DNA of 64,000 nt from a virus (taxonomy: Duplodnaviria; Caudoviricetes), in IMG/VR virus record IMGVR_UViG_3300049144_000052, positions 1 to 64,000 of that record; one strand, written 5' to 3'. The position numbers and the translations under genes are program-made. Each line of letters opens with the position of its first letter. The stretch's first letter is position 1. A model generated the notes under the pieces. It worked only from the letters and a program-made list of their open reading frames with translations. It did no database searches and was not told where the DNA came from. Below, one piece after another: positions 7,428 through 28,573 of the stretch.

Positions 7428-7438
7428 GGAGACCCCGC

Positions 7439-7534: not shown

Positions 7535-7544
7535 GAGGACCCTG

Positions 7545-7814: not shown

Positions 7815-7825
7815 TCAGGCAGCAG

Positions 7826-7856
7826 AAGGGCCCGGACCGTCATCGGTCCGGGCCTT
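7826..7856. terminator. Terminator hairpin closing the transfer-gene block
   Basis: AAGGGCCCGGACCG-TCAT-CGGTCCGGGCCTT. Confidence 0.75.
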
Positions 7857-8165
7857 CGCCATGTGCGGTACGGCGCGCGCCATCCACCGCTGGTCCGTCA
7901 ACTGCCGGGGTGGCATTGCGGGTGCGAGACCAGCATCAAGGAGCAGCTGCCAGCCCTCCGCCGTCTCCTGCTCGTCATCGCCCTGCACCGTGAAACGAAG
8001 CGCCATACCGGCAGTGTGACGCGGCGAACGAGGGCGCGTCGGCTGAACCGCCGAAGACGTGAGGGGCGGCTCCGACTGTGCCATTGGACGCTGTTGTCAA
8101 CCTCATGCGGCACCATTGGCTCAGTAGTGCCCACGCTTCCCGTACCACCGCCGAGGAGCTGCACC

Positions 8166-9543: not shown

Positions 9544-9741
9544 TCTCCTGCGCGCGGTGGTCGAGCGCAGGGAGGGCCTTGTAGCGCCACGCGCTCGGCC
9601 CGCCGTCCGCCCGGTCCTGTGGGGGCCCGGGCGGACGAAGACCTTCAAGCCGGGGCGGGTATCCGGTCCACGCCCCGAACGTCCCGCCGCCCGGCCATCC
9701 CCCTGTCACGGGCGGCGGGACAACCCCTTGAGGAGGTGACC

Positions 9742-11127: not shown

Positions 11128-11140
11128 GGAGGCGAGTCCG

Positions 11141-11524
11141 ATCAGCGACAACCTCAGCAACACGGCCGAGAACCGGATCCTCGACTGGATCAATGGCCTG
11201 TCCGCCACGGCGCCGACAACGCCCCTCAAAGTGGCCCTCGTGACTGCGGCAGGCGATGACGCCACCGCGGGCACCGAGGTGACCGGCGGCAGTTACGCCC
11301 GCAAGACGCTCACCGTCGGCGCGGCAGCGTCCGGCGCCACCAGCAACAGCGCCGACCTCCTATGGACCGGCATGCCCGCCTGCACCATCGTCGGCTGGGA
11401 AATCTGGGACAGCGCAGGCACCCCCGTCCGCCTCTGGTACGGGCCCCTCGACGCGAACAAAACGCTGGCATCCGGCGACGAATACCGCATCTCGGCCGCA
11501 GGATTGAACCTGTCGATCAGCTGA
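11141..11524 (+). CDS. Small phage tail-fibre-associated protein, apparent ATC start
   Basis: GAGGAGG RBS 8 nt before ATC-AGC-GAC-AAC; SDNLSNTAENRILDWI...TEVTGGSYARKT resembles a common phage family. Confidence 0.7.
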   Translation: MSDNLSNTAENRILDWINGLSATAPTTPLKVALVTAAGDDATAGTEVTGGSYARKTLTVGAAASGATSNSADLLWTGMPACTIVGWEIWDSAGTPVRLWYGPLDANKTLASGDEYRISAAGLNLSIS

Positions 11525-11534
11525 GGGAGGCGAC

Positions 11535-12650
11535 ATGCCGTCCCTCTCGACGCTCGTCGACAACTTCAACGCGCCCGGCCTCGGCCCCGAGTGGGGCAAC
11601 TCCTACGGCGGCACCGCAGTCGTCGCCGGCCGGGCCCGCGTACCATGCACCACCGGCTACGCAGGCTGCCAAACCGCCTACGCATGGACCCTCGCCGGCG
11701 CCACCCTCTACGTGCAGGTGCCCACCACGCCGTCCGCGACCGGCGCCACAGTCGAGGCCTACGCCGCGGTCATGGTGCAAGGCACCGTCGAGGGCACCCG
11801 AGTTGGTTTCAGCATCAACAAAGTCTCCGGGATGCTCCGGATGGTCTCCGAGACGGGCTACTGGGACGACAACGCCGTCGAAGTCACCTACAACGCGACG
11901 ACACACCTCTTCCTCCGGCTACGCGAAGACGGCACCAACCTCTACTGGGACACCAGCCCAGACGGCACGACCTGGACGAACCGGCGCACCCTCGCCACCC
12001 CCGCCTGGATCACCGCCGACGTCGACGCGTGCGCGCTCGACATGAGCTCCCACCGCGACGCCGGAACCGCCGACTACGCGGAATTCGACCTGGTCAACAC
12101 CCTGTCGAACGGGGCTGTCTACACCGGCACCGGCACCGGCTCGGCGCAGTCCGCGGCCACCGCGACCGGGAAACGCACCGCGGTCGGCGCCAGCAATGGC
12201 ACCGCGCAGTCCGCGGCAGGCGCGACCGGTACCGCCATCTACCGCGGCACCGCCGCAGGCTCCGCGCAATCGAATGCCAGCGTCACCTCTGCCACCGATG
12301 AGTTCCCGGAGGTGGCTGCCTTGGCTGCTGGCGACCTCGACCTCGTCATCGAACAGGGCGTGACGTTCGTTCAGACCTACGTCTGCAACACAGAAGATCC
12401 GAACTTCACGTGGGCTGGCTGGTCTGCTCGAGCGCAGATCCGATCCTCTGCCTCAGCATCTGGGGAGCTCTATCTCGACCTCACCCCGTACCTCACCGTG
12501 GACGGCGCGTCCGTCCGCCTCGCGATCCCCGCCACGCAGACCGCGACCCTCGACAAGGACGGGCGCTGGGACCTGGAGATGGTGATGGGCGCGACCGTCG
12601 TCCGCATCCTCCAGGGACGGATGATCGTCTCACCGGAGGTGACCCGGTGA
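11535..12650 (+). CDS. Virion accessory protein: lectin-like N-domain, GTAQS repeats, C-terminal beta-sandwich adaptor
   Basis: GSAQSAATATG-type repeats; DLVIEQGVTF...ARAQIR...WDLEM...RILQG adaptor pattern. Confidence 0.65.
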   Translation: MPSLSTLVDNFNAPGLGPEWGNSYGGTAVVAGRARVPCTTGYAGCQTAYAWTLAGATLYVQVPTTPSATGATVEAYAAVMVQGTVEGTRVGFSINKVSGMLRMVSETGYWDDNAVEVTYNATTHLFLRLREDGTNLYWDTSPDGTTWTNRRTLATPAWITADVDACALDMSSHRDAGTADYAEFDLVNTLSNGAVYTGTGTGSAQSAATATGKRTAVGASNGTAQSAAGATGTAIYRGTAAGSAQSNASVTSATDEFPEVAALAAGDLDLVIEQGVTFVQTYVCNTEDPNFTWAGWSARAQIRSSASASGELYLDLTPYLTVDGASVRLAIPATQTATLDKDGRWDLEMVMGATVVRILQGRMIVSPEVTR

Positions 12651-13852
12651 AGATCCAGGTCGTTGGCGAGAACCCCACCGACCGCATCGACGTCGTCGGC
12701 GGCACCCCCTCGATGGTGATCGAAACCCACCCCGGGCTCGTCTGGTCCGTCATGGGGAAGACCGGCGCCGTCACCGGGTTGGCCCTCGCCGCCGACGTCG
12801 TGGCCGTGCAGGCTGCTGCCGCGGCCGACGCCACCGCCAAGGTTGCCGCGCACGTCGCCGCCACCGACCCGCACGGGGACCGGGCCTGGGCGTCCGGGCA
12901 GTTCCTGCCCCTCGCCGGCGGCAGCCTTACGGGCGCGGTCACCACGACCGGAGCCGTCACCGGGGCGTCGTTCAACACCGACGGCACCGTGAGGTCGGGG
13001 AACTTCCGCACTCAGTCCGACACCGAGCACGCCCTGACCGTCTACCAGCGGGCCACCGGCACCTCACCCGGCAGCGTCGCCCTGAACGTGATCTCGGACA
13101 AGCCGGGCGACAGCGCCATGTGGCTGACCGGCCACGAGTCCGCCCGCGGCACCCTGAAGATCGCCCACCTCAACCCAGGTTCCGGTGCGACGGCGGATAC
13201 CGGTTCGGCTGCGATCTCCATCGACCTGCAGCGCAACGGGCAGGGCGGCACCGCAGCGCAGGGGATCTTCCTCACCTCGACTGAAGGCCCGACCACCGGC
13301 CGGCTCCTGGTGCTGAGGAACTCGGATCCCAGCACGACGGACGACTTCGTCGTCAACGCGGCCGGTTTGACCGGCATCCGCATCCCCGTCGGCAACGTGC
13401 CCGCCGCGGCCCTGGAAGTACGGCAGCGAGACACGTCGACGGTTGGTCTCCTCGTGCAGGGCGCCGCATCCACCGCGCAGCCGATGTTCCAGGTCAAGAC
13501 GTCCGGCGGGACCGCGACACTGGAAGTTGGCACGTCCGGGGCGATCGTCACCCGGGCGATCACGTTCTTCACGAACGCCCTCCAACTCGGCTCCACGTCT
13601 ACCGACCTGGGCGGCTCCGGTGGCGCTGTCATATCGATGAAGGACGCCACGACGGCCCCAACGACGAACCCGACCGGCGGTGTCATCGCCTACAGCCAGG
13701 GCGGCGTGTTCAAGGTCCGCAACGCGGCCGGCGTCGTCTTCGACACCACCAAACGCACCGTCACCGGCAGCCGAGGCGGCAACGCGGCGTTGGCGTCGCT
13801 GCTCACGCAGCTCGCCGCCATCGGACTGATCACCGACAGCAGCAGCGCATAA
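12647..13852 (+). CDS. Virion fibre-like protein B, paralog of protein A
   Basis: Shares ATAKVAAHVAATDPHGDRAWA and the C-terminal VTGSR..ALASLL..L..IGLITD motif; Thr/Ser/Gly-rich. Confidence 0.7.
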   Translation: MKIQVVGENPTDRIDVVGGTPSMVIETHPGLVWSVMGKTGAVTGLALAADVVAVQAAAAADATAKVAAHVAATDPHGDRAWASGQFLPLAGGSLTGAVTTTGAVTGASFNTDGTVRSGNFRTQSDTEHALTVYQRATGTSPGSVALNVISDKPGDSAMWLTGHESARGTLKIAHLNPGSGATADTGSAAISIDLQRNGQGGTAAQGIFLTSTEGPTTGRLLVLRNSDPSTTDDFVVNAAGLTGIRIPVGNVPAAALEVRQRDTSTVGLLVQGAASTAQPMFQVKTSGGTATLEVGTSGAIVTRAITFFTNALQLGSTSTDLGGSGGAVISMKDATTAPTTNPTGGVIAYSQGGVFKVRNAAGVVFDTTKRTVTGSRGGNAALASLLTQLAAIGLITDSSSA

Positions 13853-14320: not shown

Positions 14321-15031
14321 ATGGCCGACGACCTCCTCGTCATCATCCCCACCCGCGGCCGACCCCAGGCCATCCCGGAGATCATGCAAGCCTGGGATGA
14401 CACCGGGGCCACCGCCGACGTGCTGTTCTGCGTCGACAAGGACGACCCCGAACTCGCCGCGTACAAGCAGCAGGCCAAGGCGCTGGCGGACGACGAGCGG
14501 GTGCGGTTCGTGTACTGGGCGCGGAAGCGGCTCTGCGGCACCCTCAACCAGGCCGCCGTGAAGAACGCGGGCGGTTACCGGTTCCTCGCGTTCTTGGGTG
14601 ACGATCACCGGCCGCGGCCCGCCGCAATGCCGTGGGACGCGCGGATCCGTGAATGCCTCAGCGGGGGACCCGGCATCGTCTACGGCAACGACCTCCTCCA
14701 AGGCGAGAAGATGGCGACCGCCGTCGCGATGACGTCGGACATCGTGACGACGCTCGACTACATGGCGCCGCCGCAGCTGGTGCACCTCTGCCTCGACCTG
14801 GTCTGGATCGACTGGGGCCGCGGCATGCAGCGGATCACGTACCTCGACGACATGGTTATCGAGCACCTCCACCCGGCGGCAGGCAAGGCCAGCCTCGACG
14901 CCGTCTACGAGGACTGCAACAGCCCCGAACGCTCCCAGGCCGACGGCGCCGCCTACATCGACTACCGCGACAACGGCGGCCTCGCCGCCGACCTGGACAA
15001 GCTGCGGAAGCTCATTGAGGAAGCCGGGTGA
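14321..15031 (+). CDS. GT-A fold (GT2-like) glycosyltransferase
   Basis: LVIIPTRGRP start, LFCVDKDD, LNQAA, FLGDD (DxD-like), late EHLHP. Confidence 0.75.
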   Translation: MADDLLVIIPTRGRPQAIPEIMQAWDDTGATADVLFCVDKDDPELAAYKQQAKALADDERVRFVYWARKRLCGTLNQAAVKNAGGYRFLAFLGDDHRPRPAAMPWDARIRECLSGGPGIVYGNDLLQGEKMATAVAMTSDIVTTLDYMAPPQLVHLCLDLVWIDWGRGMQRITYLDDMVIEHLHPAAGKASLDAVYEDCNSPERSQADGAAYIDYRDNGGLAADLDKLRKLIEEAG

Positions 15032-15426
15032 CCGAGACGACCGCCTTCGGGATCCTCCTCGCCCACCTCGCCGGGGACTACCTCATCCAGTCGGATTGGA
15101 TGGCGAACGAGAAGACGAAGCGCTGGTGGCCCGCATGGGCGCACGCCGTCACCTATGGCCTGCCGTTCCTGCTCGTCACCCAGTCGCCTCTCGCGCTCGC
15201 GGTCATCGTCGTCACGCACGCGGTGATCGACCACTACCGGCTGGCCCGGCACGTCGTGTGGGCGAAGAACTTCCTGGCCCCGCGCTCTTACTGGCATCCG
15301 TGGTCGGACTGTTCGACAACGGGCTACCACAAGGATCGCCCGGCGTGGCTGGCCGTCTGGCTGATGATCATCGCGGACAACGCGATCCACCTCGCGATCA
15401 ACGCCGCTGCCGTCACCTGGCTCTAG
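15028..15426 (+). CDS. DUF3307-like membrane protein
   Basis: HLAGDYLIQSDWMA, AHAVTY and HAVIDHY motifs within hydrophobic helices. Confidence 0.7.
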   Translation: MTETTAFGILLAHLAGDYLIQSDWMANEKTKRWWPAWAHAVTYGLPFLLVTQSPLALAVIVVTHAVIDHYRLARHVVWAKNFLAPRSYWHPWSDCSTTGYHKDRPAWLAVWLMIIADNAIHLAINAAAVTWL

Positions 15427-15434
15427 GAGGTCTG

Positions 15435-16316
15435 ATGCGCGTCCTCCTCACCGGCGCTTCCGGGTTCGTCGGCCGCCACCTGCACCGGGCGCTCCTCGAT
15501 CGCGGCGACGACGTCTTCGGCATCGATCTCAACGCCACCTCGCTAGTTCGAGGCGGTGACGCCCTCGACTTCTTCCGTGAAAGCGACGCTACCTTCGATC
15601 TCGCCATTCACTGCGCGGCGATCGTCGGCGGACGGGCCAGCATCGACGGCTCCCCGCTCGGCGTCGGCACCAACCTCGCCCTCGACGCTTGGTACATGCG
15701 GTGGCTGATCCGCACCGGAACGCCGCGCGCCGTGTACTTCAGCTCGTCCGCCGCCTATCCCATCGCGCTTCAGCAGCCCGGCGACGTGCGGCGCCTGTAC
15801 GAAGAGGACATCAACCTCGCGTACATGGAAGAACCCGACGCAAGCTACGGCTGGGCGAAGCTGACCGGGGAGAAGCTCGCGTCCTACGCCGAAGCCGAAG
15901 GCTGCCGCATCCTCATCCCCCGCCCCTTCAGTGGCTATGGCGAGGATCAGGCGGACTGCTACCCGTTCCCCGCGTTCATCGCCCGCGCCAAACGACGCGA
16001 CGACCCGTTCGAAATCTGGGGCGACGGTAGCAGTACGAGGGATTGGATCCACATCTCGGACCTGGTGGGCGCCACCCTCGCGCTCCTCGACGCCGACGTC
16101 ACCGGACCGGTCAACCTCGGCTGGGGACGGGCAACCAGCTTCGACGACCTTGCCCACATCGTGTGCACAGCCGCCGGCTACATGCCGCAGTACAAGCACC
16201 GGCACGACGCCCCCCAAGGCGTCCACCACCGCGTCAGCGACCCGTCCCGCATGCTCAACCACTACGTGCCCACGATCACGCTCGAAGAAGGCGTGCGGCG
16301 GGCGCTCAACACCTGA
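15435..16316 (+). CDS. NAD-dependent nucleotide-sugar epimerase/dehydratase (extended SDR)
   Basis: TGASGFVG Rossmann motif, YFSSSAAY, catalytic YGWAK, IWGDGSSTRDWIH. Confidence 0.9.
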   Translation: MRVLLTGASGFVGRHLHRALLDRGDDVFGIDLNATSLVRGGDALDFFRESDATFDLAIHCAAIVGGRASIDGSPLGVGTNLALDAWYMRWLIRTGTPRAVYFSSSAAYPIALQQPGDVRRLYEEDINLAYMEEPDASYGWAKLTGEKLASYAEAEGCRILIPRPFSGYGEDQADCYPFPAFIARAKRRDDPFEIWGDGSSTRDWIHISDLVGATLALLDADVTGPVNLGWGRATSFDDLAHIVCTAAGYMPQYKHRHDAPQGVHHRVSDPSRMLNHYVPTITLEEGVRRALNT

Positions 16317-19337: not shown

Positions 19338-19817
19338 GTGGCTGGTCGCGGCCCACAGCCGAAGGATCCGTCGCGCCGGGCCCGAGGGAACAAGGACCCG
19401 ATCGCCCAGACCGTTCTGCGCTTCGAGCATGCGGAGCCGCCCGAGTTGCCGACCCTGTCGGTGCTGAAGGATGGCGAACTGGTCGAGTACGCGTGGCCGG
19501 CGAGGACGTTGGACTGGTGGGAGATGTGGAAAGCGTCGCCTCAGGCGGAGCACTTCTCGTCGACCGACTGGGACTTTCTGCTCGACACCGCCGTTGTGCA
19601 CGCCCGGTTGTGGTCGGGGGAGATGTCGGCGGCGGCCGAGCTCCGGTTGCGGGTGGCGAAGTTCGGCGCGACTCCGGAGGACCGGGCCAGGTTGCGGATG
19701 CAGTTCGCTCAGGCCGATGAGGCGGACAGTAAGCGTCCTGAGGGTGGGCGGTCGGCGAGGGAGAGGCGCGGGGTTCTGCGGGCGCTGCCGCCCCCGGAGG
19801 AAGCGTCGGGGGGCTGA
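19338..19817 (+). CDS. terS: Terminase small subunit
   Basis: GRGPQPK start, AAELRLRVAKFGATPEDRARL; directly before terL. Confidence 0.8.
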   Translation: MAGRGPQPKDPSRRARGNKDPIAQTVLRFEHAEPPELPTLSVLKDGELVEYAWPARTLDWWEMWKASPQAEHFSSTDWDFLLDTAVVHARLWSGEMSAAAELRLRVAKFGATPEDRARLRMQFAQADEADSKRPEGGRSARERRGVLRALPPPEEASGG

Positions 19818-19818
19818 C

Positions 19819-21450
19819 ATGCCGTGGAAGCCGCCAGAACCGGGGGCGGTGCCGTCCCTGGGGTTCGAGGTCATTGACTGGATCTCGGAGATGCTGGCGG
19901 CTCCGGACCGCGGCGAGTACGAGCCGTTCCTGCTGTACCCGGAGCAGGAAGACTTCGTCCTTCGCTACTACGAGATCAACCCTCACACCGGCAAGCGTCG
20001 CTTCCGGCGAGGCGTCATCAGCCGGCCGCGCGGCTGGGGCAAATCGCCGTTCCTGGCCGCCCTGGCGATCGTCGAGGCACTCGGCCCGGTGGTCCCGGAT
20101 GGCTGGGACGCGGACGGTCAGCCGGTGGGCAAACCGTGGTCTGAGGTGCGAACTCCGCTGGTGCAGATCGCGGCTGTGTCGGAGACGCAGACGAAGAACA
20201 CGTGGGCGCCGTTGCTGGAGATGCTGCAAGGTCCGGTGCTTGAGGAGTATCCGGGGCTAGAGCCCTTGGACTCCTTTGTGAATCTGCCGCGGGGCCGGAT
20301 CGAGCCGATCACGTCGTCGGCTCGGACAGTGAAGGGCAATAAGCCTGTATTCGCGGTTCTTGACCAGACCGAGGAGTGGGTGCGGTCGAACAACGGGTTG
20401 CGCCTGGCGGAGACGATGCGGATCAACGCAGCGAAGGTCGGCGGCACAACGATCGAATCTCCGAACGCGTACATCCCGGGTGAGGGGTCGGTTGCCGAGG
20501 AGTCGGCGGCGTTCTGGACGAAGATTCGTGAGGGTCGGGCGAAGGATGACGGCCTCTACTACGACCATCGTGAAGCACCGCCCGAGACTGATCTGACGGA
20601 CCGGCAGTCATTGATCGCTGGGCTCGCGTACACCTACGGGGACTCAGCTGATCGCAACGGCGGGCATGTCGACCTGGACACGATCGTGGCAACGATCTGG
20701 GATCCGAGTACTGACCCTCAGACGTCGCGGGCGGACTTCCTCAACCAGATCACGCACGCCTCCGACTCGTGGATCTCTCAGCCCGAGTGGGCTGGTGTCG
20801 CGGCGCCGGACAAGGTGGTGGGGCACGGCGAGGAGATCGTTCTCGGGTTCGACGGCTCGCGGCGCCGTAATCGCGGTGTCACGGACGCTACGGCCCTCGT
20901 CGGGTGCCGGGTGTCGGACGGCCATCTTTTCCTTGTGGACTGCTGGGAGCAGCCAGATGGGCCGTTCGGTCAGGACTGGCAGGTGCCCACGGTGGAAGTG
21001 CTGGCGAAGGTCGAGGAGGCGTTCCGCGACTACAAGGTCGTCGGGATGTACGCGGACCCTGCCCGCTGGGAGTCCCACGTTGCGAAGTGGGAGGCCGAAC
21101 ACGGCCGCCGGTTGAAGCTGAAGGCTTCAGCCCAGCATCCGATCGAGTGGTGGATGACGGGCGGCCGATCCTTCCAGATTGTTCGGGCGCTGGAGAAGTT
21201 CCGGTCGAGCGTCGTGGATGGCGAACTGTCGCACGACGGGTCGAGCGTCCTCACGCGGCACATCCTGAATGCCCGGCGGCGTGAGTCGCGGAGCGGCATC
21301 CAGATCATGAAGGAGCACCCGGATAGCGCACGGAAGATCGATGCCGCTGTTGCGGCAGTTCTCGCCTGGCAATGCCGCGTGGACGCCATGGCCAAGGGGC
21401 TCGGCCGCAAGAAGGCCAGCAAGTCGGGACGGGTGGTGGTGCTGCGGTGA
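19819..21450 (+). CDS. terL: Terminase large subunit
   Basis: SRPRGWGKS Walker A, VLDQTE, LGFDGS nuclease motif, KIDAAVAAVLA. Confidence 0.92.
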   Translation: MPWKPPEPGAVPSLGFEVIDWISEMLAAPDRGEYEPFLLYPEQEDFVLRYYEINPHTGKRRFRRGVISRPRGWGKSPFLAALAIVEALGPVVPDGWDADGQPVGKPWSEVRTPLVQIAAVSETQTKNTWAPLLEMLQGPVLEEYPGLEPLDSFVNLPRGRIEPITSSARTVKGNKPVFAVLDQTEEWVRSNNGLRLAETMRINAAKVGGTTIESPNAYIPGEGSVAEESAAFWTKIREGRAKDDGLYYDHREAPPETDLTDRQSLIAGLAYTYGDSADRNGGHVDLDTIVATIWDPSTDPQTSRADFLNQITHASDSWISQPEWAGVAAPDKVVGHGEEIVLGFDGSRRRNRGVTDATALVGCRVSDGHLFLVDCWEQPDGPFGQDWQVPTVEVLAKVEEAFRDYKVVGMYADPARWESHVAKWEAEHGRRLKLKASAQHPIEWWMTGGRSFQIVRALEKFRSSVVDGELSHDGSSVLTRHILNARRRESRSGIQIMKEHPDSARKIDAAVAAVLAWQCRVDAMAKGLGRKKASKSGRVVVLR

Positions 21451-22913
21451 CCCTCTCGATCCCTGAACTCCCGCTGGTGTACCTGTCGGATGATGAACTC
21501 GCCCTGATCAACGTGCTGCGTGCGGATATGCAGCGGGACCGGTACGCCTTGCTGTTGCGGGACGCGTACTTCAACGGCGAGCAGCTGGTCCGCGATCTCG
21601 GCATCAGCATCCCCCCGCAGCTCAAGGGCCTGCACACGGTCATCGGCTGGCCGCGGGTAGGCGTCGAGAGTCTGGAAGAGCGCCTCGACCTGGAGGCGTT
21701 CCGCTGGGCTGACGGCGCGGACTCGTCGGAGTTGGCTGAGATCGCCGACGCCAATGATCTGTTCGACGAGTCGAGCCTCGCGCACCTTGATGCGCTCGTC
21801 TACGGCCGCGAGTATCTGGCGGTCGGTTCGGGGGATTGCCGCACGGATGACTGTCCGCCGTTGATCTCTGCGGAGTCGCCGCTGGATATGACGTTGATGT
21901 GGGATGCCCGTCTGCGGATGGGTACGGCGGCGCTGCGGGAGTGCCAGGCTGACGGATTCGTCGAGTCGGGTCCTGATGAGCGGATGATCGTCCTCTATCT
22001 GCCGGATCAGACCATCACCGCTCTGCCGTCCCCGTCGGGCGGCTGGGAGGTCGTCGACCGGGACATCCACAACTTGGGTGTCGTTCCGGTGGTGCGGATG
22101 GCGAACCGGCAGCGCACCGCGGACCGTGTCGGCAAGAGTGAGATCACCCCGGAGGTCATGTCGATCACGGATGCCGCGTGCCGGCGTCTGATGGGCATGG
22201 AGGTGGCTGCGGAGTTCTTCGGCGCCCCGCAGCGCTACATTCTCGGCGCGTCCGAGTCGGCTTTCCAGGACGCTGAGGGCAACGCCAAGAGCGCCTGGGA
22301 GACGTACATCGGCCGCGTGCTGGCGCTTGAGCGGGACGAGGACGGCCAGGTACCGACGGTCGGCCAGTTCGCCGCGCACGATCCGACGGCGATGACGCGG
22401 ATCATCGACCTGTACGCGCGGATCATGTCGAGCCAGTTCGGGCTGCCGCCGCACATGCTGGGCTACACCACCGACAACCCGGCGAGCGCGGATGCGATCC
22501 GGTCGACTGAGGCGAAGCTGGTCAAGCGGTCGGAGCGTCGGATCCGCAGGTATGGGGCGGCGTGGCAGCAGGCCATGCGGCTGGCCCTGTGGGTGCGTGA
22601 TGGGGAGCCGCCGGACAAGACCCGGCGGATCGAGACGGTATGGCGGAACCCGGCGACACCTACGGTGGCCGCTCAGGCGGACGCCACGGTGAAACTGGTC
22701 CAGGCGGGCATCCTGCCGGCGGATTCCGACGTCACGCTCGAGATGGCAGGACTGACCGAGGGGCAGCGCCAGCGAGTGAGGGCGGATCGCCGCCGCTCAG
22801 GCGCTGCGGCCACTGGCGGGCGGCTGCTGGATCGGCTGGCCGGCCTGGACGAACGGCCCTCGACGGCGCTGCCGGATGTGGTGGAGGTCGACGGTGGCGA
22901 CGACGGTCTCTGA
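21447..22913 (+). CDS. Portal protein, SPP1 gp6-like
   Basis: Position after terL; GWPRVGVESLEERL, NPASADAIRS and W..PATPT patterns. Confidence 0.9.
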   Translation: MTLSIPELPLVYLSDDELALINVLRADMQRDRYALLLRDAYFNGEQLVRDLGISIPPQLKGLHTVIGWPRVGVESLEERLDLEAFRWADGADSSELAEIADANDLFDESSLAHLDALVYGREYLAVGSGDCRTDDCPPLISAESPLDMTLMWDARLRMGTAALRECQADGFVESGPDERMIVLYLPDQTITALPSPSGGWEVVDRDIHNLGVVPVVRMANRQRTADRVGKSEITPEVMSITDAACRRLMGMEVAAEFFGAPQRYILGASESAFQDAEGNAKSAWETYIGRVLALERDEDGQVPTVGQFAAHDPTAMTRIIDLYARIMSSQFGLPPHMLGYTTDNPASADAIRSTEAKLVKRSERRIRRYGAAWQQAMRLALWVRDGEPPDKTRRIETVWRNPATPTVAAQADATVKLVQAGILPADSDVTLEMAGLTEGQRQRVRADRRRSGAAATGGRLLDRLAGLDERPSTALPDVVEVDGGDDGL

Positions 22914-23643
22914 CGGCGGCCGTGATCCGGACCGGTATCGGGCTGCACAGCGCAGCTTGTCTCGGCTGCTGTTGCGGGATGTTCGCAGGTTGCGGCGTCT
23001 GATCATTCCGTCGCGGTTGCGTTCGTCGGTGCCGGACTGGGCTGCTGCTGTTCAGGCCGTTGTTGACCAGTACGCGCAGACGTCGGCCGCTTTGGGTGCC
23101 GAGTTCTACGACGCCCAGCGGGAGGCTGCCGGGGTGACGGACTCGTTCACGGTGCCCGTTGCCGACCCGCCCCCTGAGGAGCGCACGGAGGCGAGCCTGC
23201 GGTGGGCGACGAAGGATGTGTGGGAGCGGGATCCCGACGTTGCGACGCCGGCGCAGTTGGAGCCTCTCGACGTCCGGCTGGAGCAGGCGGAGAAGAAGGC
23301 CGAGTTGGTGGTGCAGAAGCTCGTCACCGACGCGGGCCGTGGCACGGTGATTGAGGCGGTGCGTCAGGACCGGCAGGCGACCGCGTGGGCCCGTTCGGCA
23401 GCCCTGGGTGCCTGCGCCTTCTGCCGCATGCTCGCTATACGGGGCGCCGTCTATAAGCGGGACACGGTCGACTTCCGCGCCCATGACGGCTGCCACTGCA
23501 TGACCATTCCCGTGTTTGCCGGGCAGCGGTTCGAGCTGTCCGACAAGGCCAAGGAGTGGGAGCGGCTGTACCGGGAGTACGCCGCGCCCTACTCGGGCGA
23601 TCAGCTCCGCCGGTTCAGGCGGGCCATAGCCGAGCACGGCTGA
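22894..23643 (+). CDS. Capsid maturation / minor head protein
   Basis: Between portal and scaffold; ACAFCRMLA...FRAHDGCHC motif. Confidence 0.75.
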   Translation: MATTVSDGGRDPDRYRAAQRSLSRLLLRDVRRLRRLIIPSRLRSSVPDWAAAVQAVVDQYAQTSAALGAEFYDAQREAAGVTDSFTVPVADPPPEERTEASLRWATKDVWERDPDVATPAQLEPLDVRLEQAEKKAELVVQKLVTDAGRGTVIEAVRQDRQATAWARSAALGACAFCRMLAIRGAVYKRDTVDFRAHDGCHCMTIPVFAGQRFELSDKAKEWERLYREYAAPYSGDQLRRFRRAIAEHG

Positions 23644-23722
23644 GAGCCGAGCTCACCGTTCAACGAGGTCGCCCTGGTGGCGGCCTTTCTCATTTCCACA
23701 GCCCCTGGAGGGCCGATTCGTC

Positions 23723-24373
23723 ATGCCTGAAGAGACCGAGACGACCGAGCAGCAGGACACCGGCGCCGACGAAACCGCCGAGGAGACGGCGACCGAGGAG
23801 AGCGGCACCGACACCACGGAGGACACCCAGGAGGCGGACACCGGCGGCGAGGACAAGCCGTTCGACCGGAAGAAGTTCGAGGCGGAGCTGCGTAAGAAGA
23901 ACAGCGAGGCCGCGAACCTCCGAAAGCGCCTGAAGGAGCTCGAACCGCTGGCGAAGAAGGCCAAGGAGTTCGAGGACGCACAGAAGTCCGAGACTGAGCG
24001 CCTCAACGATCAGTTGGCCGCTGCGACCGAGCAGATCGCCAATACCCGCAAGCGCCTCGTCGAGGCGCGCGTGCAGGCTCTGGCTGGAACGGCGGCGGGC
24101 GAGCGTGCAGCGTTCACGGATCCCGAGGACGCACTCAGTTCGCTCGACCTCGGCTCGTACATCGACGACTCGGGTGACATCGACGAGTCCGCCATTGAGG
24201 CGGATCTCCAGGCGCTGTTGGAGCGCAAGCCGCACTGGGCCAAGACGGCTCAGCCCCAGGAGGGCCCGCGGCGACCTGCGCCGGACCGCACTCAGGCGTC
24301 CGGCGCCAACAAGAAGCAGGCCCCCAACCCTCGCGACGAGTTCGCCGGGTGGCTGAGTTCGAAGCTCACGTAG
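23723..24373 (+). CDS. Capsid scaffolding protein
   Basis: Acidic N-terminus, coiled coil, position before the capsid gene. Confidence 0.85.
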   Translation: MPEETETTEQQDTGADETAEETATEESGTDTTEDTQEADTGGEDKPFDRKKFEAELRKKNSEAANLRKRLKELEPLAKKAKEFEDAQKSETERLNDQLAAATEQIANTRKRLVEARVQALAGTAAGERAAFTDPEDALSSLDLGSYIDDSGDIDESAIEADLQALLERKPHWAKTAQPQEGPRRPAPDRTQASGANKKQAPNPRDEFAGWLSSKLT

Positions 24374-24392: not shown

Positions 24393-25349
24393 ATGGCGGT
24401 CACCGCCCCCCTGACGCTGTCCAACGTGGACAGCGCGCTCCTGCCCCGCACGATCACGGCGCCGATCTTCGAGAAGTCGGTGGAGGCCAGCGCGGTCATG
24501 CAGCTGGCCCGTCCGGCGCCGCTGGCCCTGGACGCCACCACCTCGGTGCCGATCCCGATGGACGTGCCGACCGCCGACTGGGTCGGCCAGGCGGCGAAGA
24601 AGCCCCTGTCGACCGGCGGCGTCGACGTCAAGCAGATGCAGGCCAAGAAGGTCGCCGTGCTGATCCCGGTCGCGATGGAGGTCGCGAAGACCAACGCGGG
24701 CGGCCTGTACGACCAGCTTCAGAAGGATCTGCCGACGGCGTTCGCGCGGGCCTTCGACCACGCGACGATCCACGGAAAGACGATGAAGGGCGCCGCAGGC
24801 CCGTTCACCGAGTACCTGGCCGCGACTTCCAACAGCGTGGCGCTGGGTACGGCCACGCAGGCGCAGGGCGGCATTTGGGCCGACTTCGTCAACGGCATGG
24901 CCGAGGTCGTCGACGACGACTGGGACTACACCGGTACGGTGGCGGACCACCGGCTGAAGCCGTCGCTACTGCTGGCGACGGACACGACGGGCCGGCCGAT
25001 CCTGGTAGACACGCAGACGCCGGGCACGAACATGGCGGCGGCTGGCACGCTGATCGGCGAGCCGCTCGCGTACTCCCGCAGCGTGTCGGGTAAGCAGCGC
25101 CGGCAGTCGGCGAGCGTCGACACTGGCCTTCGGGCGATCGGCGGCGACTGGAGTCAGGCCGCATATGGGGTCGGAATGGACATTACGGTCCGGATCTCCG
25201 ACCAGGCGACCTACGTCGACGAGGAGGGCGGCGTCCACTCCGCCTTCCAGGAGAACCTCGTCCTGATCCTCGCGGAGGCCTACTACGGCTTCGTCATGGG
25301 CGACGTCGACGCGTTCGTCAAGTTCACCGGCACCCCTTCGGGGTCCTGA
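24393..25349 (+). CDS. Major capsid protein (HK97 fold)
   Basis: 318 aa after scaffold; KKVAVLIPV, FARAFD, FQENLVLILAEAYYG; ends TPSGS. Confidence 0.92.
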   Translation: MAVTAPLTLSNVDSALLPRTITAPIFEKSVEASAVMQLARPAPLALDATTSVPIPMDVPTADWVGQAAKKPLSTGGVDVKQMQAKKVAVLIPVAMEVAKTNAGGLYDQLQKDLPTAFARAFDHATIHGKTMKGAAGPFTEYLAATSNSVALGTATQAQGGIWADFVNGMAEVVDDDWDYTGTVADHRLKPSLLLATDTTGRPILVDTQTPGTNMAAAGTLIGEPLAYSRSVSGKQRRQSASVDTGLRAIGGDWSQAAYGVGMDITVRISDQATYVDEEGGVHSAFQENLVLILAEAYYGFVMGDVDAFVKFTGTPSGS

Positions 25350-26383
25350 TGGCGAGGGCTGTCCCGGCTTCCGCGCCGGGCGGGGCAGCCAAGCCCCTGA
25401 AGATCGTCGCCCGCGTGCATGCGATGCCGCCTGAGCACAATGCGGGCGCCGAACACATGCTCGTGTCGATGCTCCGGCCGCTGGTGGAGCGCGGGCATGA
25501 CGTGTCTGTGTGGCTGTCCCGCTACGGCAAGGCTCACAAGGAGTACGACTACCGGGGCATCCGGGTGGTGCCGTTGGAGTCGCGGCTCGACTTCCCGAAC
25601 GCGGTGAAGCGCTCCGATGTGCTGCTCGCTCATCTGGAGACGGTGCCGTCGGCGGCGTCTCTGGCCCGTGGTTGGGGCAAGCCGCTGGTGGTGGTCTGCC
25701 ACAACACGCACCGGCCGACGTTCCGGGACGCTGCGGCGGGTGGAACCGCACTGGCGGTCTACAACTCCCTGTGGATGGAGCGGGAGGCGGAGCTGTTCTT
25801 CGCCGAGTATCCGAAGTCCATCCGCCCCGAGTCGTCGCTGATTGTGCGCCCTCCGGTGTTCGCCGACGAGTACGCGACGAAACCCGGCAAGGCCATCACG
25901 CTGATCAACTGCAATCCGGAGAAGGGCGGCAAGGTCCTCGACGCGCTGGCCCGCCGCATGCCGGATCAGCAGTTCCTTGCCGTGAAGGGCGCCTATGGCG
26001 AGCAAGTCCTCCCGGATCTTCCCAACGTGGAGATCGTCGAGCATGTTCGTGGCGAGGACATGCGGGAGCAGGTGTACGCCCGCACCCGCGTTCTGCTGAT
26101 GCCGTCTTCCTACGAGTCGTGGGGGCGGGCTGGCTGCGAGGCGTTGGCGAGCGGTATCCCCGTAGTGGCTCACCCGACGCCGGGTCTGTGCGAGTCGCTG
26201 GGAGAGGCCGGAATCTTCGTGGACCGCGCCGACGTCGCGGGCTACGAGGCGGTCCTCCGGAAGCTGCTCACCGCGGCGGAGTATCGCCTCGCGTCGAAGC
26301 GGGCGAAGGCCCGGTCTGCCGAACTCGATCCGGCTGCTGATCTGGCTGCCTGGTGCAGTGCCGTGGAGGCTCTGGCCCGTTAG
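25349..26383 (+). CDS. GT-B fold (GT4-like) glycosyltransferase coupled to the capsid gene
   Basis: GAEH...LVERGHDV start, NPEKGG, LLMPSSYESWGRAGCEALASGIPVVA, GLCESLG; TGATG overlap. Confidence 0.88.
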   Translation: MARAVPASAPGGAAKPLKIVARVHAMPPEHNAGAEHMLVSMLRPLVERGHDVSVWLSRYGKAHKEYDYRGIRVVPLESRLDFPNAVKRSDVLLAHLETVPSAASLARGWGKPLVVVCHNTHRPTFRDAAAGGTALAVYNSLWMEREAELFFAEYPKSIRPESSLIVRPPVFADEYATKPGKAITLINCNPEKGGKVLDALARRMPDQQFLAVKGAYGEQVLPDLPNVEIVEHVRGEDMREQVYARTRVLLMPSSYESWGRAGCEALASGIPVVAHPTPGLCESLGEAGIFVDRADVAGYEAVLRKLLTAAEYRLASKRAKARSAELDPAADLAAWCSAVEALAR

Positions 26384-26391
26384 GAGGCGTC

Positions 26392-26805
26392 GTGGCTTTC
26401 GTCCCTCCGACCGCTGAGCAGCTCGGCCTCTATCTGGGGCTCGACGAGATCCAGGGCGACCGGGCCGACCTGTTGCTCACGACAGCGGTCGCCCTCTGCC
26501 AGACGGTGATCAAGCCGCTCCCGGAGGGTGCCGAAGCTGTCGTCCTGTCGGTTGCGGGCCGCGCCTACGTGAACCCGCAGCAGGTGTCCTACGAGACGAT
26601 CGGCCCGATGTCGGTGCAGCGTCCCCAGGGTTCTGGCGGCCTGTACCTGACCAAGGCGGACAAGTCCGCGCTGAAGTCGCTGGCCGGCCGCGGGGGCGCG
26701 TTCACGGTGGATCCGACACCGGCGACGGCGGATCCGTCGCCGACGTGGCCGATCGACGACGCCGGCTTCGCCGACGAGTTCGAGCCCGGATGGGGGTACT
26801 CCTGA
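26392..26805 (+). CDS. Head-tail connector/adaptor
   Basis: Position; RAYVNPQQVSYETIGP motif. Confidence 0.75.
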   Translation: MAFVPPTAEQLGLYLGLDEIQGDRADLLLTTAVALCQTVIKPLPEGAEAVVLSVAGRAYVNPQQVSYETIGPMSVQRPQGSGGLYLTKADKSALKSLAGRGGAFTVDPTPATADPSPTWPIDDAGFADEFEPGWGYS

Positions 26806-27176
26806 TGCCGGCGCCGTACCCGTTCGGGGAGACGGTGCGGATTGTGCGTACCGGTCCGTCGCCGGGAAGGGATCCGCGCGGGCATCCGTTGCCGGGCCCG
26901 GACGAGTCGTTCGACATCGAGGGCTGTGTGGTGACGCCGCGGGCGGAGACGCCGCAGGTGGGCGGCAGCCAGCAGCAGGACCGGGACACGGTCATCGTCG
27001 GCTGGACGGTGTACGCCCCTGCTGGCCATCCGGGGATGCCGCTACGCACCACGGACGGGGCTGTGATTCGCGGCGTGAGGTGTGAGATCACGGGCGAGCC
27101 GGGCGACTGGGGGCGGTCCCCGTTCACCGGCACCCGCGGTGTGGTCCAGTTCGCTGCCGACCGTGTCACTGGCTGA
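26805..27176 (+). CDS. Head-to-tail stopper
   Basis: Position; TGATG coupling; EITGEPGDW motif. Confidence 0.7.
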   Translation: MPAPYPFGETVRIVRTGPSPGRDPRGHPLPGPDESFDIEGCVVTPRAETPQVGGSQQQDRDTVIVGWTVYAPAGHPGMPLRTTDGAVIRGVRCEITGEPGDWGRSPFTGTRGVVQFAADRVTG

Positions 27177-27194
27177 CCAGGAAGGCGGTGGACG

Positions 27195-27524
27195 GTGCCT
27201 GCCCGGTTCAAGATGAAGCGTAAGGGCGTCGGGGAGATGCTGCGGATGCCGTCGATGCAGGCGGAGATGCTGCGGCGTGCCGAGGTCATCAAGGGTGTGG
27301 CGGTGGGCTTGTCCCCGGTGGACGAGAACGGTCCTCATCCTGGGCATTACAAGGAGTCGTGGGAGACGGACAGCACGGCTCGTGGTGGCCGGCGCCGAGA
27401 CCGGGCGACAGCCGTCGTCCGTAACACGGCCTATTACGCCCGCTGGGTGGAGTACGGCACGGAGAAGGTCCACGCCCATCATGTGCTGCTGCGGGCAGCG
27501 CAGTTGGGTGGGCGGAACCAGTGA
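27195..27524 (+). CDS. HK97 gp10-like neck protein
   Basis: GHYKESW and YARWVEYGT motifs. Confidence 0.78.
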   Translation: MPARFKMKRKGVGEMLRMPSMQAEMLRRAEVIKGVAVGLSPVDENGPHPGHYKESWETDSTARGGRRRDRATAVVRNTAYYARWVEYGTEKVHAHHVLLRAAQLGGRNQ

Positions 27525-27913
27525 CCGCCCTCGTCGACATCGAGCTGGAGCTCATCGGCCGCGGCCAGGCCCGATTCCCGGACGCGGTGGTGCGGGACGA
27601 GCTCGACAACAACCTGCTCAACGAGTTGCCGACGATCCAGATCCAGCAGATCCCCGGCGGCGACGATGACGGGCTGAGGCTCGGCCGGATGCTCGTCGAC
27701 ATCGACGTGTACGCCACCACCAGGGCTGATGCGATCACGCTGGCCCGTGCGGTGCACGACTGGGTGACTGGCGAACTTCGCGGCTCGACCAGCGACACCG
27801 CCGTCATCGGCCGCACAGGCGGCCTCACGCTGCCGGCACCTCGCCCCTACGACAACACCGCCCTGCGCCGTGTCGGGGCGACCTACGAAATCTTCTGCCA
27901 CCCGGTCTCCTGA
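27521..27913 (+). CDS. Tail terminator protein
   Basis: Position before the major tail gene; VDIDVYATTRADA. Confidence 0.72.
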   Translation: MTALVDIELELIGRGQARFPDAVVRDELDNNLLNELPTIQIQQIPGGDDDGLRLGRMLVDIDVYATTRADAITLARAVHDWVTGELRGSTSDTAVIGRTGGLTLPAPRPYDNTALRRVGATYEIFCHPVS

Positions 27914-27985
27914 CCGGCTGCTGGGCCCGCGCCGGACCCGTTTCTCCCGCCCGTGCGCGGGCTCTTCCATGTCTGGAGACATCTC

Positions 27986-28573
27986 ATGGTCAACATCACC
28001 CGCGCTGCCGACTTGGCGCTCGTGGGCGCGAACGGCGGGGGTTTCGTCGCCCCGGTGGGGACGGCGGCGCCGGCGGATCCCCGGAATCAGCCGCAGGCTC
28101 CGTGGGAGCCGCTGGGCGCGATCTCGGACGACGGTCTGACCTACGGGTTCGACGAGGACAGCCAGGAGTTCACCCCCTGGGGTCTGACCAGCCCGTTCCG
28201 CACGCAGATCACCAAGTCCGTGCGGACGTTCGGACTGACGGTGTGGGAGACGTCCCGTATCGCTGTCCAGTCGCTGCAGTACCGGCTGGACGCGGCAGAT
28301 CTGGAGCCGGACGGGGACGGTCTGACGAAGTACGCGGAGACCGCGTCGCCCTCGCCGGACCGCCGGGCGTTCTGGTTTCTCGTCATCGACGGGGACGCCT
28401 ACAAGGGCTTCTACGTGCCCGAGGGCGAGATCAACGACCGGTCGGACGTGACTTTCAAGCAGGACGAGATGTCCGGCTACGAGTGGACGATCACGACCTA
28501 CCCGGACGCGTCCGGGAACACCGTCTACCACGTCGACAAGATCCCGGTCACGCCCGCGTACAGCGGGTCCTGA
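27986..28573 (+). CDS. Major tail (tube) protein
   Basis: LGAISDDGL, EFTPWG, YEWTITTYPD; ends AYSGS. Confidence 0.88.
   Translation: MVNITRAADLALVGANGGGFVAPVGTAAPADPRNQPQAPWEPLGAISDDGLTYGFDEDSQEFTPWGLTSPFRTQITKSVRTFGLTVWETSRIAVQSLQYRLDAADLEPDGDGLTKYAETASPSPDRRAFWFLVIDGDAYKGFYVPEGEINDRSDVTFKQDEMSGYEWTITTYPDASGNTVYHVDKIPVTPAYSGS

Follow-up and report, generated by a model that had tools for sequence, protein, structure and literature searches.

A temperate Streptomyces phage very probably gives its virion a sugar coat, in the manner known from a few mycobacteriophages. In the window, that is, the whole stretch of 64,000 nucleotides analyzed here, the capsid and the tail tube protein both end in serine and a glycosyltransferase gene is joined to the capsid gene; because this combination is kept in more than 130 related phages, a sugar coat is judged very probable from the genes and by analogy. 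We put the probability that the GT4-family enzyme would O-glycosylate the C-terminal Ser or Thr of both proteins at about 70%.

Capsid, tail tube and sugar genes of the window

Translation of the open reading frames bore out the protein ends given in a first-pass annotation of this DNA: the HK97-type capsid protein ends in KFTGTPSGS and the tail tube protein in VTPAYSGS. Both genes also terminate, as had been stated, in GGGTCCTGA; these nine nucleotides are identical because both genes encode Gly-Ser-stop with the same codon bias. Assignment of the first protein to the HK97-fold major capsid proteins was confirmed by its Pfam Phage_capsid match and by an AF2 model with the HK97 fold (pLDDT 88), for which the best Foldseek match was the Bxb1 capsid (9d9x). 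The tail GTPSGS lies past the last beta strand (residues 308-312) of this model, and alignments to capsid homologues end at residue 311-313, short of the tail. The second protein was confirmed as a siphophage tail tube by its match to Phage_TTP_17 and by the position of its gene, downstream of the tail terminator gene (27521-27913) and upstream of the chaperone (28679-) and tape-measure genes. Six of the 68 predicted proteins of the window end in Ser, and only capsid and tail tube end in GS.

The gene behind the capsid gene had been described as GT4-like and coupled to the capsid stop, and both statements proved correct. Its ATG begins with the A that closes the TGA of the capsid gene (TCC TGA TGG), so that the two genes overlap by one base. 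The predicted protein scored above the Pfam cut-offs for Glyco_trans_1_4, Glycos_transf_1, Glyco_transf_4 and GT4-conflict (PF13692, 52.4 bits with a cut-off of 27; PF00534, 42.2 and 26.4; PF13439, 29.6 and 28.5). The two-Rossmann-domain GT-B fold was confirmed by an AF2 model (pLDDT 90.1, pTM 0.87) with at least 500 Foldseek matches, of which those listed were GT-B enzymes, mostly GT4. The best were the retaining GT4 enzymes 7qsg, MshA (3c4q), and BshA and PimA (3mbo and 2gej), at a TM of about 0.7. An EX7E motif is located in the C-terminal domain, with E256 and E264 invariant in 20 homologues down to an identity of 57%. Judged by this motif and by the confident model with its GT4 neighbors, the enzyme looks catalytically intact.

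Fold and EX7E motif are shared with the GT4 enzymes of CAZy, namely MshA, BshA, PimA and the mycobacterial methylmannose-polysaccharide mannosyltransferase, and partial NCBIfam matches to MshA and BshA were obtained. However, identity to these enzymes ranges over 12-20%, and in NCBIfam the family cut-offs were missed by a wide margin. Furthermore, the acceptors of the CAZy enzymes are inositol phosphate, malate, lipids or glycans, whereas a protein C terminus is proposed here.

A second, GT-A type glycosyltransferase is encoded upstream, close to a putative sugar epimerase (Table 1). The GT-A had no match in Pfam and NCBIfam; its homologues at NCBI are named 'glycosyltransferase family A/2 protein', and it carries an IIPTRGRP strand at the N-terminus and an invariant GDDH. 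A single copy of the gene, roughly 10 kb ahead of the capsid gene, was found in 26 of the genomes of 40 relatives. The nearest NCBIfam family of the epimerase is GDP-L-fucose synthase (E 1e-22, under the family cut-off).

Table 1. Positions of the genes and protein tails considered, with the basis of each assignment.
Feature	Position	Strand	Basis
Second glycosyltransferase, GT-A type, 236 aa, candidate accessory enzyme that may extend the glycan	14321..15031	+	Homologue names, motifs
DUF3307 small protein between GT-A and epimerase	15028..15426	+	Pfam PF11750 E 9e-10
NAD-dependent sugar epimerase/reductase (extended SDR), which may tailor the donor sugar	15423..16316	+	Pfam Epimerase E 1e-33
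Portal, VG15-like protein and scaffold, head genes located upstream in this late operon	21372..24373	+	Pfam SPP1_portal, VG15; PHROG head scaffolding
Major capsid protein, HK97 fold, 318 aa	24393..25349	+	Pfam Phage_capsid PF05065 E 3e-21; PHROG major head protein
Capsid C-terminal tail, residues 313-318 (GTPSGS), proposed acceptor Ser318	25329..25346	+	Model, alignments, conservation
GT4-family (GT-B) glycosyltransferase, 344 aa	25349..26383	+	Pfam GT1/GT4 families over cut-off; model; EX7E
Head-tail connector genes between GT4 and tail tube (adaptor, head closure, neck, tail terminator)	26353..27913	+	PHROGs 137, 501, 5, 123
Tail tube (major tail) protein	27953..28573, likelier start 27983 (196 aa)	+	Pfam Phage_TTP_17 E 6e-17; PHROG major tail protein
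Tail tube C-terminal tail (AYSGS), terminal Ser as proposed acceptor	28556..28570	+	Conservation of last residue

Conservation of the last residue

The last residue of the capsid protein was compared over 138 related loci carrying the GT4 gene and was found to be Ser in 116, Thr in 18 and Ala in four. The tail tube protein ended in Ser at 120 of 121 loci. Counting distinct tails gave the same picture, with 29 S-ended, five T-ended and two A-ended among 36 capsid tails, and 64 S-ended among 65 tail tube tails. Entropy at the last position of the capsid was 0.88 bit as compared to 1.7-2.6 bits at positions -2 to -6, and only 0.11 bit at the last position of the tail tube. The terminal Ser was the sole hydroxyl residue within the last six in seven capsid tails and 13 distinct tail tube tails. 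Portal, scaffold, adaptor and neck proteins encoded at the same loci lacked such a pattern; unlike in capsid and tail tube, the last residues of the connector proteins were variable or part of fixed motifs. Across these alignments the signal is thus evolutionary: the last residue is kept as Ser or Thr in both proteins at more than 130 loci, with the preceding residues changing. The terminal-serine motif had been proposed as the acceptor of a phage glycan. In support of this proposal, the end is conserved and occurs together with glycosyltransferases, but the conserved element, as aligned here, is a C-terminal Ser or Thr, usually behind a small residue, rather than the motif SGS, and the role as acceptor is one that we infer. 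Four capsids end in SGSA and one, from a separate subfamily, in STSA; therefore, a strictly terminal Ser is not obligatory.

At each of the 51 genome loci with a capsid identity of at least 68%, found in Streptomyces, Nonomuraea, Sphaerisporangium, Streptosporangium and Actinomadura, the GT4 gene is located right behind the capsid gene, and this order was also found in a sister clade at 58% identity. Every relative down to this identity has the two genes in immediate succession, and both proteins end in Ser or Thr except for the few capsids with Ala. The diverged tail tube of the sister clade escaped tblastn, yet it ends in GPGS, GAGS or GTAS. The GT4 start is placed on the capsid stop in 51 of 80 viral contigs. 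As the GT4-bearing loci essentially form one clade, counts within it stand for one origin maintained by selection and not for many independent gains.

The common end of the two proteins could be due to chance or to a constraint on the nucleotides, TCG GGG TCC TGA being kept because it contains the ribosome binding site (GGGG, at a distance of 5 nt from the ATG) and overlaps the GT4 start. A G-run is indeed located 6-9 nt upstream of the GT4 ATG within the Ser-Gly codons, and a tripeptide end shared inside one window of about 70 proteins is statistically unremarkable, not improbable by chance and weak evidence by itself. However, the tail tube gene has no coupled gene downstream (about 105 nt separate it from the next ORF), yet its Ser is the stricter one. 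Moreover, in L029, L032, L043 and others the GT4 start lies about 100-130 nt downstream, and the capsids still end in Ser behind quite different tails. Among the relatives, the terminal Ser is written by TCC, TCG and AGC, hence by both the TCN and the AGC class of serine codons, and the constraint therefore acts on the amino acid. This explanation was already disfavored and is considered very improbable.

Occurrence of serine ends with glycosyltransferases in other phages

The first-pass annotation had also suggested checking whether such ends co-occur with glycosyltransferase genes. Among relatives, the Ser ends track these genes. Capsids of relatives lacking a glycosyltransferase end in AAF, DAN, DAA, DLI, HTA, PTP or ANV, and their tail tubes do not end in Ser; four viral genomes of this group, each at least 97% complete, gave no GT1 or GT2 match. 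The control phages Bxb1, TM4 and Muddy likewise gave no glycosyltransferase match, and none of their capsid and tail tube ends is Ser. In contrast, the independent glycosyltransferase-bearing lineages of Che8, Corndog, Brujita and TurkishDelight have Ser ends on both proteins. Counted by lineage, both proteins end in Ser in five of five glycosyltransferase-positive and in none of ten negative lineages (Fisher exact p about 3e-4, our own arithmetic). The layout of a capsid gene followed by a glycosyltransferase gene was found again in a separate capsid subfamily (39% identity) represented by L242, with the capsid end NDSGS and two GT-A genes, and L243, with the capsid end SPSTSA and a GT4 41% identical to that of the window, followed by a Che8 gp109-like protein, a DXD glycosyltransferase and a methyltransferase. 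In one subclade, insertion-domain capsids end in THAxGS, one of the tail tubes (L181) ends in PAS, and no glycosyltransferase was found in the fragments available, which are only 19-44% complete.

In the O-glycosylated mycobacteriophage virions described by Freeman et al. (2023, Cell Host Microbe 31:1216), Che8 included, capsid and tail tube reportedly carry their glycans at the C terminus. The ends compared are KTGS and SDGS in Che8, LVGS and KGDS in Corndog, and PSGS and YSGS in the window for capsid and tail tube, respectively. All three phages encode glycosyltransferases (gp108-110 in Che8, gp35-38 in Corndog), and in Corndog these genes are also located within the head gene block. According to PMC12363180, PMC11600133 and PMC11256854, capsid and tail tube of Che8, Corndog and Myrna virions are glycosylated by phage glycosyltransferases; the precedent of Che8 cited in the first-pass annotation agrees with what is given in the first two, which both refer to Freeman et al. 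2023. The enzymes differ, however. Those of Che8 and Corndog are of GT-A types (GT2 plus methyltransferase, and GT25-like) and belong to other Pfam families than the GT-B GT4 of the window, and comparison of the window enzymes with Che8 gp108-110 and Corndog gp36-38 by BLASTP and phmmer revealed nothing below an E of 0.25. Furthermore, in the window a single glycosyltransferase gene is coupled stop-to-start to the capsid gene, and the phage represents a widespread temperate family with Streptomyces as host; glycosylation is reported for Che8 and Corndog and is here predicted from the genes.

Streptomyces phage TurkishDelight is the only INPHARED phage with a homologue of the window's GT4 (gp20, 42% identity). 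This gene, annotated as glycosyltransferase, is also located between the genes for capsid (end PGSTS) and major tail protein (end CVAS). However, gp20 consists of two GT4 units in tandem (678 aa), and the 93.6-kb phage belongs to another lineage with a capsid of a different, larger family unmatched by tblastn.

Proposed glycosylation of the virion and alternative targets

Late in infection, the stop-start coupling would yield the GT4 from the capsid message. The predicted soluble enzyme of the retaining GT-B type would use a nucleotide-sugar donor and transfer the sugar onto the terminal residue of the capsid and tail tube subunits, at the hydroxyl of a Ser or, in some cases, a Thr. These putative acceptors would form the tips of short, unstructured, variable tails, usually behind Gly, Ala or another small residue, so that the GT4 probably reads 'small residue-Ser-COOH' and not a fold. 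The GT-A and the epimerase/reductase encoded 10 kb upstream in this phage and in about two thirds of its relatives may extend or diversify the glycan. We infer from these genes the attachment of the sugar itself and the GT4 as its initiator, as well as a donor sugar and a benefit to the phage.

It is possible, though unlikely, that the tails are glycosylated but receive their first sugar from the GT-A or a host enzyme and that the GT4 only extends it. Acceptors in known GT4 structures are mostly non-protein, the Ser-ended capsid gene of L242 is followed by GT-A genes only, and the GT-A-type Che8 gp110 and Corndog gp38 are named essential for capsid glycosylation in PMC12363180. However, the GT-A is absent from 14 of the 40 relatives' genomes, e.g. 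L007, which keep both Ser ends. All of these have the GT4 gene, and it is this gene that is joined to that of the capsid.

Prophages commonly encode glycosyltransferases acting on polymers of the host surface, and the GT4 might accordingly act off the virion. Its target would then be the envelope of the host, as in lysogenic conversion or superinfection exclusion, or else a small molecule or a secreted polysaccharide, with Ser kept for assembly or stability. The GT4-conflict match would fit such a role; furthermore, terminal Ser is frequent in the capsid family (29 of 106 representatives, regardless of glycosyltransferase context), and some Ser-ended capsids have no glycosyltransferase nearby. 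Yet the conflict match is confined to the shared nucleotide-binding part (residues 227-292), a PADLOC search gave no match for the GT4, and in every relative the gene is located within the late head operon, outside lysogeny and moron regions. An off-virion target would also leave unexplained why two unrelated folds have the same last residue only where a glycosyltransferase is present, and why the same pattern occurs in Che8, Corndog, Brujita and TurkishDelight. We therefore regard it as quite unlikely.

Finally, the GT4 could glycosylate phage DNA (hydroxymethyl-base hypermodification) and not protein, as DNA-glucosylating GT-B enzymes are known from phages (T4; bioRxiv 10.1101/2023.12.21.572611). 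The 76.6-kb record (estimated 100% complete) contained no thymidylate-synthase-like hydroxymethylase and no Tet/JBP-type dioxygenase, the latter half of the search being weak because none of the control genomes gave a match in the Tet control. Since covariation with the protein ends is left unexplained as well, a DNA target appears highly improbable.

The proposed glycosylation of a terminal serine has a counterpart in the group I pilin of Pseudomonas aeruginosa. TfpO/PilO attaches an O-glycan to the serine at the C terminus of this abundant structural subunit of the cell surface, and recognition depends mainly on that residue. TfpO, mentioned in PMC13445384, is an oligosaccharyltransferase of the membrane and acts in the periplasm with a lipid-linked O-antigen unit. 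In contrast, the window enzyme is a predicted soluble cytoplasmic GT4 with matches to GT-B Pfam families only and none of the O-antigen-ligase type; the comparison is thus an analogy and not a membership.

If the GT4 indeed glycosylates both tails, the two proteins most abundant on the particle surface would carry a glycan on each of their copies. The phage and its relatives would then represent a variant of virion glycosylation of the type of Freeman et al. 2023, achieved with unrelated enzymes.

Late operon and the C termini of the capsid protein and the tail tube protein

The virus record behind the window comprises 76.6 kb and is 100% complete according to CheckV; the window represents its first 64 kb, with a G+C content of ~68%, and its nearest relatives are Streptomyces prophages. 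A siphophage late operon of standard type was located on the + strand between 19.5 and 39 kb (see table). The first-pass annotation had proposed that the capsid end TGTPSGS and the tail tube end TPAYSGS form a shared glycosylation tag for the GT4-like gene coupled to the capsid gene. Both protein ends were read as described in the window ORFs, both genes carry the identical nucleotide end GGGTCCTGA, and the TGA of the capsid gene supplies the A of the GT4 start codon.

Coordinates of features in the window and in loci used for comparison
Sequence	Feature	Position	Strand
Window	Other fibre-like ORFs	9619-12650	
Window	HylP-like gene	12410-13852	
Window	GT-A glycosyltransferase	14321-15031	
Window	Large terminase	19471-21450	+
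Window	SPP1-type portal	21372-22913	+
Window	VG15-like head protein	22876-23643	+
Window	Scaffold	23723-24373	+
Window	HK97-type major capsid protein	24393-25349	+
Window	GT4 glycosyltransferase	25349-26383	+
Window	Connector genes, four	26353-27913	+
Window	Head-tail adaptor	26353-26805	
Window	Tail terminator	27521-27913	
Window	Tail tube protein	27953/27983-28573	+
Window	Chaperones	28679-	+
Window	Tape measure, 1690 aa	29447-34519	+
L007 and L008, Streptomyces acidicola NZ_VMNX01000001.1	Capsid-GT4-tail tube modules	164742-177695 and 74861-87814	
L051, Actinomadura sp. CNU-125	Tail tube protein	9858-10505	
L241, Muddy NC_022054	Capsid and tail tube proteins	3659-4648, 6553-7194	
L242	Region of the two GT-A genes	4455-6688	
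L243	Region of the glycan-building cassette	4300-8081	

Six of the 68 predicted proteins of the window end with Ser, and a Gly-Ser end is limited to the capsid protein and the tail tube protein. A terminal tripeptide common to two proteins among ~70 is not a rare event, and the identical nine bases at both gene ends result from Gly-Ser-stop and codon bias. Within the window alone, the shared SGS end is only weakly beyond chance; the real evidence for a tag is comparative, across relatives.

Upstream of the packaging genes, the window also encodes a fibre-like protein with a strong match to Pfam HylP (streptococcal phage hyaluronidase; E 1.6e-42), which other fibre-like ORFs adjoin and which is followed by the trio of GT-A, DUF3307 and epimerase genes.

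Conservation of the last residue in relatives

A capsid-anchored genome search yielded 54 loci. GT4 directly followed the capsid gene in 51 of the 51 loci with a capsid identity of at least 68%, the hosts being many Streptomyces species, Nonomuraea, Sphaerisporangium, Streptosporangium, and Actinomadura. A GT4-anchored scan identified 493 IMG/VR contigs encoding a GT4 relative; the same layout was present in the best 80 of these 493, which in this alignment-based scan were close relatives only, with no independent GT4 lineages among them. The same capsid-GT4 pair occurs in a sister clade with 58% capsid identity, whose tail tube proteins, too diverged for tblastn, end with GPGS, GAGS or GTAS. 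No sequenced phage has a capsid protein >60% identical to that of the window, and no phage genome matched the module in a megablast search. The GT4-bearing loci are essentially one clade.

Two modules (L007 and L008) with identical protein ends and identities lie ~90 kb apart on one contig of S. acidicola and could represent either a pair of related prophages or one large duplication. A Streptomyces-type module with a capsid identity of 80-82% was also found in a Micromonosporaceae MAG (L026) and in a MAG assigned to the myxobacterial Kofleriaceae (L023); the latter assignment is probably a binning error.

Among 138 pooled capsid proteins, 116 end with Ser, 18 with Thr and four with Ala (SGSA in every case), and no other last residue was found. 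Tail tube proteins end with Ser in 120 of 121 cases, never with Thr or Ala. Since the loci are often near-duplicates, distinct ten-residue tails were counted as well: 29 of 36 capsid tails end with Ser, five with Thr and two with Ala, and 64 of 65 tail tube tails end with Ser. At the last position, capsid proteins show an entropy of 0.88 bit and tail tube proteins one of 0.11 bit, against 1.6 to 2.6 bits at positions -2 to -6. The sole tail tube protein without a Ser end (L051) overruns the usual end by ~20 residues (..DPASLPGAG...TAQ), which appears to reflect a frameshift, loss of the stop codon with apparent read-through, or a sequencing error.

Hence, the terminal Ser, or Thr, of the proposed SGS tag is kept, but the residues before it vary across relatives, both in capsid tails (TPSGS, TNGYIS, AAGNIS, AGSDIS, LAAGGAS, VATAGAS, KGGGS) and in tail tube tails (AYSGS, AYTGS, ADPLS, AEPAS, DEVNS, EVPLS, VGGGS, AGPGS). 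The comparative data thereby reduce the proposed acceptor to one terminal residue. Seven capsid and 13 tail tube tails contain no further Ser, Thr or Tyr within the last six residues. Ser is not required strictly at the last position, as SGSA and STSA ends exist.

At the same loci, the portal, VG15, scaffold, adaptor, and neck proteins vary freely in their last residue, and the Gly end of the head-closure protein and the HPVS or HPA end of the tail terminator are parts of fixed motifs. About 80% of relatives have the HPVS end and most others the HPA end; the adaptor ends with Ser (GWGYS) in the window phage only. The ends of tail terminator and adaptor are unlike the capsid and tail tube tag in behaviour.

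The terminal Ser is encoded by TCC, TCG or AGC, and this use of several codons places the constraint on the amino acid, not on the DNA. It is very improbable that the Ser ends stem from a nucleotide-level or ribosome-binding-site constraint, or from chance: no coupled gene lies downstream of the tail tube gene, the Ser end persists in variants with a spaced glycosyltransferase gene, and AGC is used besides TCN codons. A ribosome-binding-site or codon constraint was rejected as the cause.

Three of the 54 loci, from Leifsonia, Nocardioides, and Mycobacterium (capsid identity 52-65%), lack a glycosyltransferase gene; their capsid proteins end with AAF, DAN and AAF, respectively. The capsid family was present in 11 of 401 sampled genomes of the class. 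Prophage relatives in this sample (capsid identity 26-56%) have no glycosyltransferase of the panel within ~8 kb, their capsid proteins end with DAA, DLI, AAGS, HTA, NAS, PTP, DHS or ANV, and none of their presumed tail tube proteins ends with Ser. In IMG/VR, most capsid proteins of a large insertion-domain clade end with TKGTAAF or TKGSAAF/Y, and four genomes of this clade, each at least 97% complete, gave no Pfam GT1 or GT2 match. In the wider capsid family, 29 of 106 representatives (27%) are Ser-ended. THAxGS ends were found in a capsid subclade with an inserted domain (L161, L171, L174, L177, L178, L181, L193, L210, L226, L233, L062), the fragments of which are 19-44% complete and contain no GT1 or GT2 gene; the tail tube protein of L181 (Phage_TTP_16) is Ser-ended (TYPAS) and that of L178 ends with TVRG. 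This subclade is either a counter-example to the tag rule, or its glycosyltransferase gene is located elsewhere in the genome. Viral-contig scans with the queries P0186, P0150, and P0156 gave no relatives, and with P0134 only short or non-Ser-ended ones.

Glycosyltransferases and a proposed mechanism

The GT4 model has a pLDDT of 90. Its structural neighbours, at 12-20% identity, are the mycobacterial methylmannose-polysaccharide mannosyltransferase, MshA, BshA, and PimA, i.e. retaining GT4 enzymes, and the EX7E pair E256 and E264 is invariant in homologues down to 57% identity. The protein matches phrog_26352 almost end to end (E 5e-168), a family labelled 'unknown function'; the enzyme would therefore escape routine annotation of phages, and its identification closes this annotation gap. 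A role in a defence system was rejected, as PADLOC gave no match.

About 10 kb upstream, three genes encode a GT-A enzyme of 236 aa, a protein with DUF3307, and an extended-SDR sugar epimerase/reductase whose closest family is GDP-fucose synthase. GT-A is not recognized by Pfam; its homologues are named GT family A/2 by NCBI and share an invariant GDDH motif. Of 40 genomes of relatives, 26 have a single GT-A copy next to the prophage, and both Ser ends are kept in the 14 genomes without it. GT-A is therefore accessory, and it is GT4 that accompanies the tag throughout. It is rather unlikely that another enzyme starts the glycan and GT4 merely extends it.

Strand 308-312 marks the end of both the homologue alignments and the capsid model, and residues 313-318 form a coil of lower confidence; the tag is therefore a short appended tail outside the HK97 core. 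Given this unstructured tail and the general properties of the folds, the C termini are assumed to be surface-exposed in the particle.

We propose, with a probability of about 0.7, that GT4 O-glycosylates the C-terminal Ser or Thr of the capsid protein and the tail tube protein. GT4 would be translated off the capsid message through stop-start coupling, would recognize a flexible 'small residue-Ser-COOH' end, and would place an O-glycan on the terminal residue of both subunits. Where the respective genes occur, GT-A and the epimerase may extend or alter this glycan. That GT4 glycosylates DNA instead is highly improbable; this candidate was rejected, as neither a hydroxymethylase nor a Tet-type gene was found in the 76.6-kb record, although the Tet search matched none of the control genomes either.

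Terminal serine and glycosyltransferases in independent lineages

Virions of the mycobacteriophages Che8, Corndog, and Myrna carry capsid and tail tube proteins glycosylated by phage glycosyltransferases (PMC12363180, PMC11600133, PMC11256854), and other actinophages with such genes are suspected of the same virion glycosylation (PMC13313380). The window system has the tag in common with Che8 and would work in the same way. However, gene placement in the window is unlike that in Che8, and similarity of GT4 to Che8 gp108-110 and Corndog gp36-38, which are GT-A types, was undetectable. Hence, we class the window system as a putative variant of Che8-type virion glycosylation with an unrelated enzyme. 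Freeman and co-workers (2023) reportedly found O-linked glycans on the capsid protein and the tail tube protein, attached at their C termini, and are said to have noted putative glycosyltransferases in some Gordonia and Streptomyces phages. To our knowledge, experimental proof of phage virion glycosylation is limited to a few mycobacteriophages.

Capsid and tail tube proteins end with KTGS and SDGS in Che8, with LVGS and KGDS in Corndog, and with ETAS and EAGS in Brujita, which has a GT2 match at its right end. Streptomyces phage TurkishDelight encodes a tandem GT4 between the capsid and major tail genes, the sole homologue of the window GT4 among sequenced phages; the two proteins of this phage end with PGSTS and CVAS. 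Bxb1, TM4, and Muddy, which served as controls, have no GT1, GT2 or Che8 gp110 match and no Ser-ended capsid or tail tube protein. The co-occurrence expected for a tag was borne out: counted per lineage, both proteins are Ser-ended in 5/5 lineages with a glycosyltransferase and in 0/10 without (Fisher exact p ~3e-4), some tail tube proteins being assigned by position and absence of the enzyme being judged by the glycosyltransferase panel or two Pfam families only. It is unlikely that GT4 acts on a target outside the virion and that the Ser ends are kept for another reason.

In Muddy, a similar acidic Gly-Glu repeat ends both the capsid (..GGSGEGEGESE) and the tail tube protein (..GGGGEGEGEGE), a different tail chemistry on the same two proteins.

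A separate capsid subfamily with 39% identity shows the same architecture, with a glycan-building cassette directly after the capsid gene. One locus (L242) encodes the capsid end NDSGS followed by two GT-A genes. In another (L243), where the capsid protein ends with SPSTSA, the next gene encodes a GT4 with 41% identity to that of the window, and the cassette also encodes a protein resembling Che8 gp109, a DXD glycosyltransferase, and a methyltransferase; the enzyme type of the window and a Che8-type enzyme are thus present in one cassette.

It is conceivable, though doubtful, that virion glycosylation in actinobacterial phages follows a general acceptor code, a free C-terminal Ser or Thr preceded by a small residue, independent of enzyme family. 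Unrelated enzymes would then have converged, namely GT-A in Che8 and Corndog and the GT-B type GT4 in the window and TurkishDelight, and a single GT4 would recognize two unrelated folds by an identical end of one or two residues. If this code is true, glycosylated virions would be predictable from sequence alone, and the tag would be a minimal, portable handle for adding sugars to phage particles. The terminal-residue rule is very simple and testable, and the capsid tail with GT4 provides a compact two-gene model for recognition of a protein C terminus by a soluble glycosyltransferase.

For a phage in soil, selection cannot act through shielding from antibodies as reported for mycobacteriophages. 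The proposed glycosylation would depend here on an enzyme unrelated to those of the mycobacteriophages and coupled straight to the capsid gene; dozens of genomes carry the capsid-GT4 module and 493 IMG/VR contigs a GT4 relative, which suggests widespread use of this strategy among temperate phages that infect Streptomyces and Streptosporangiales.
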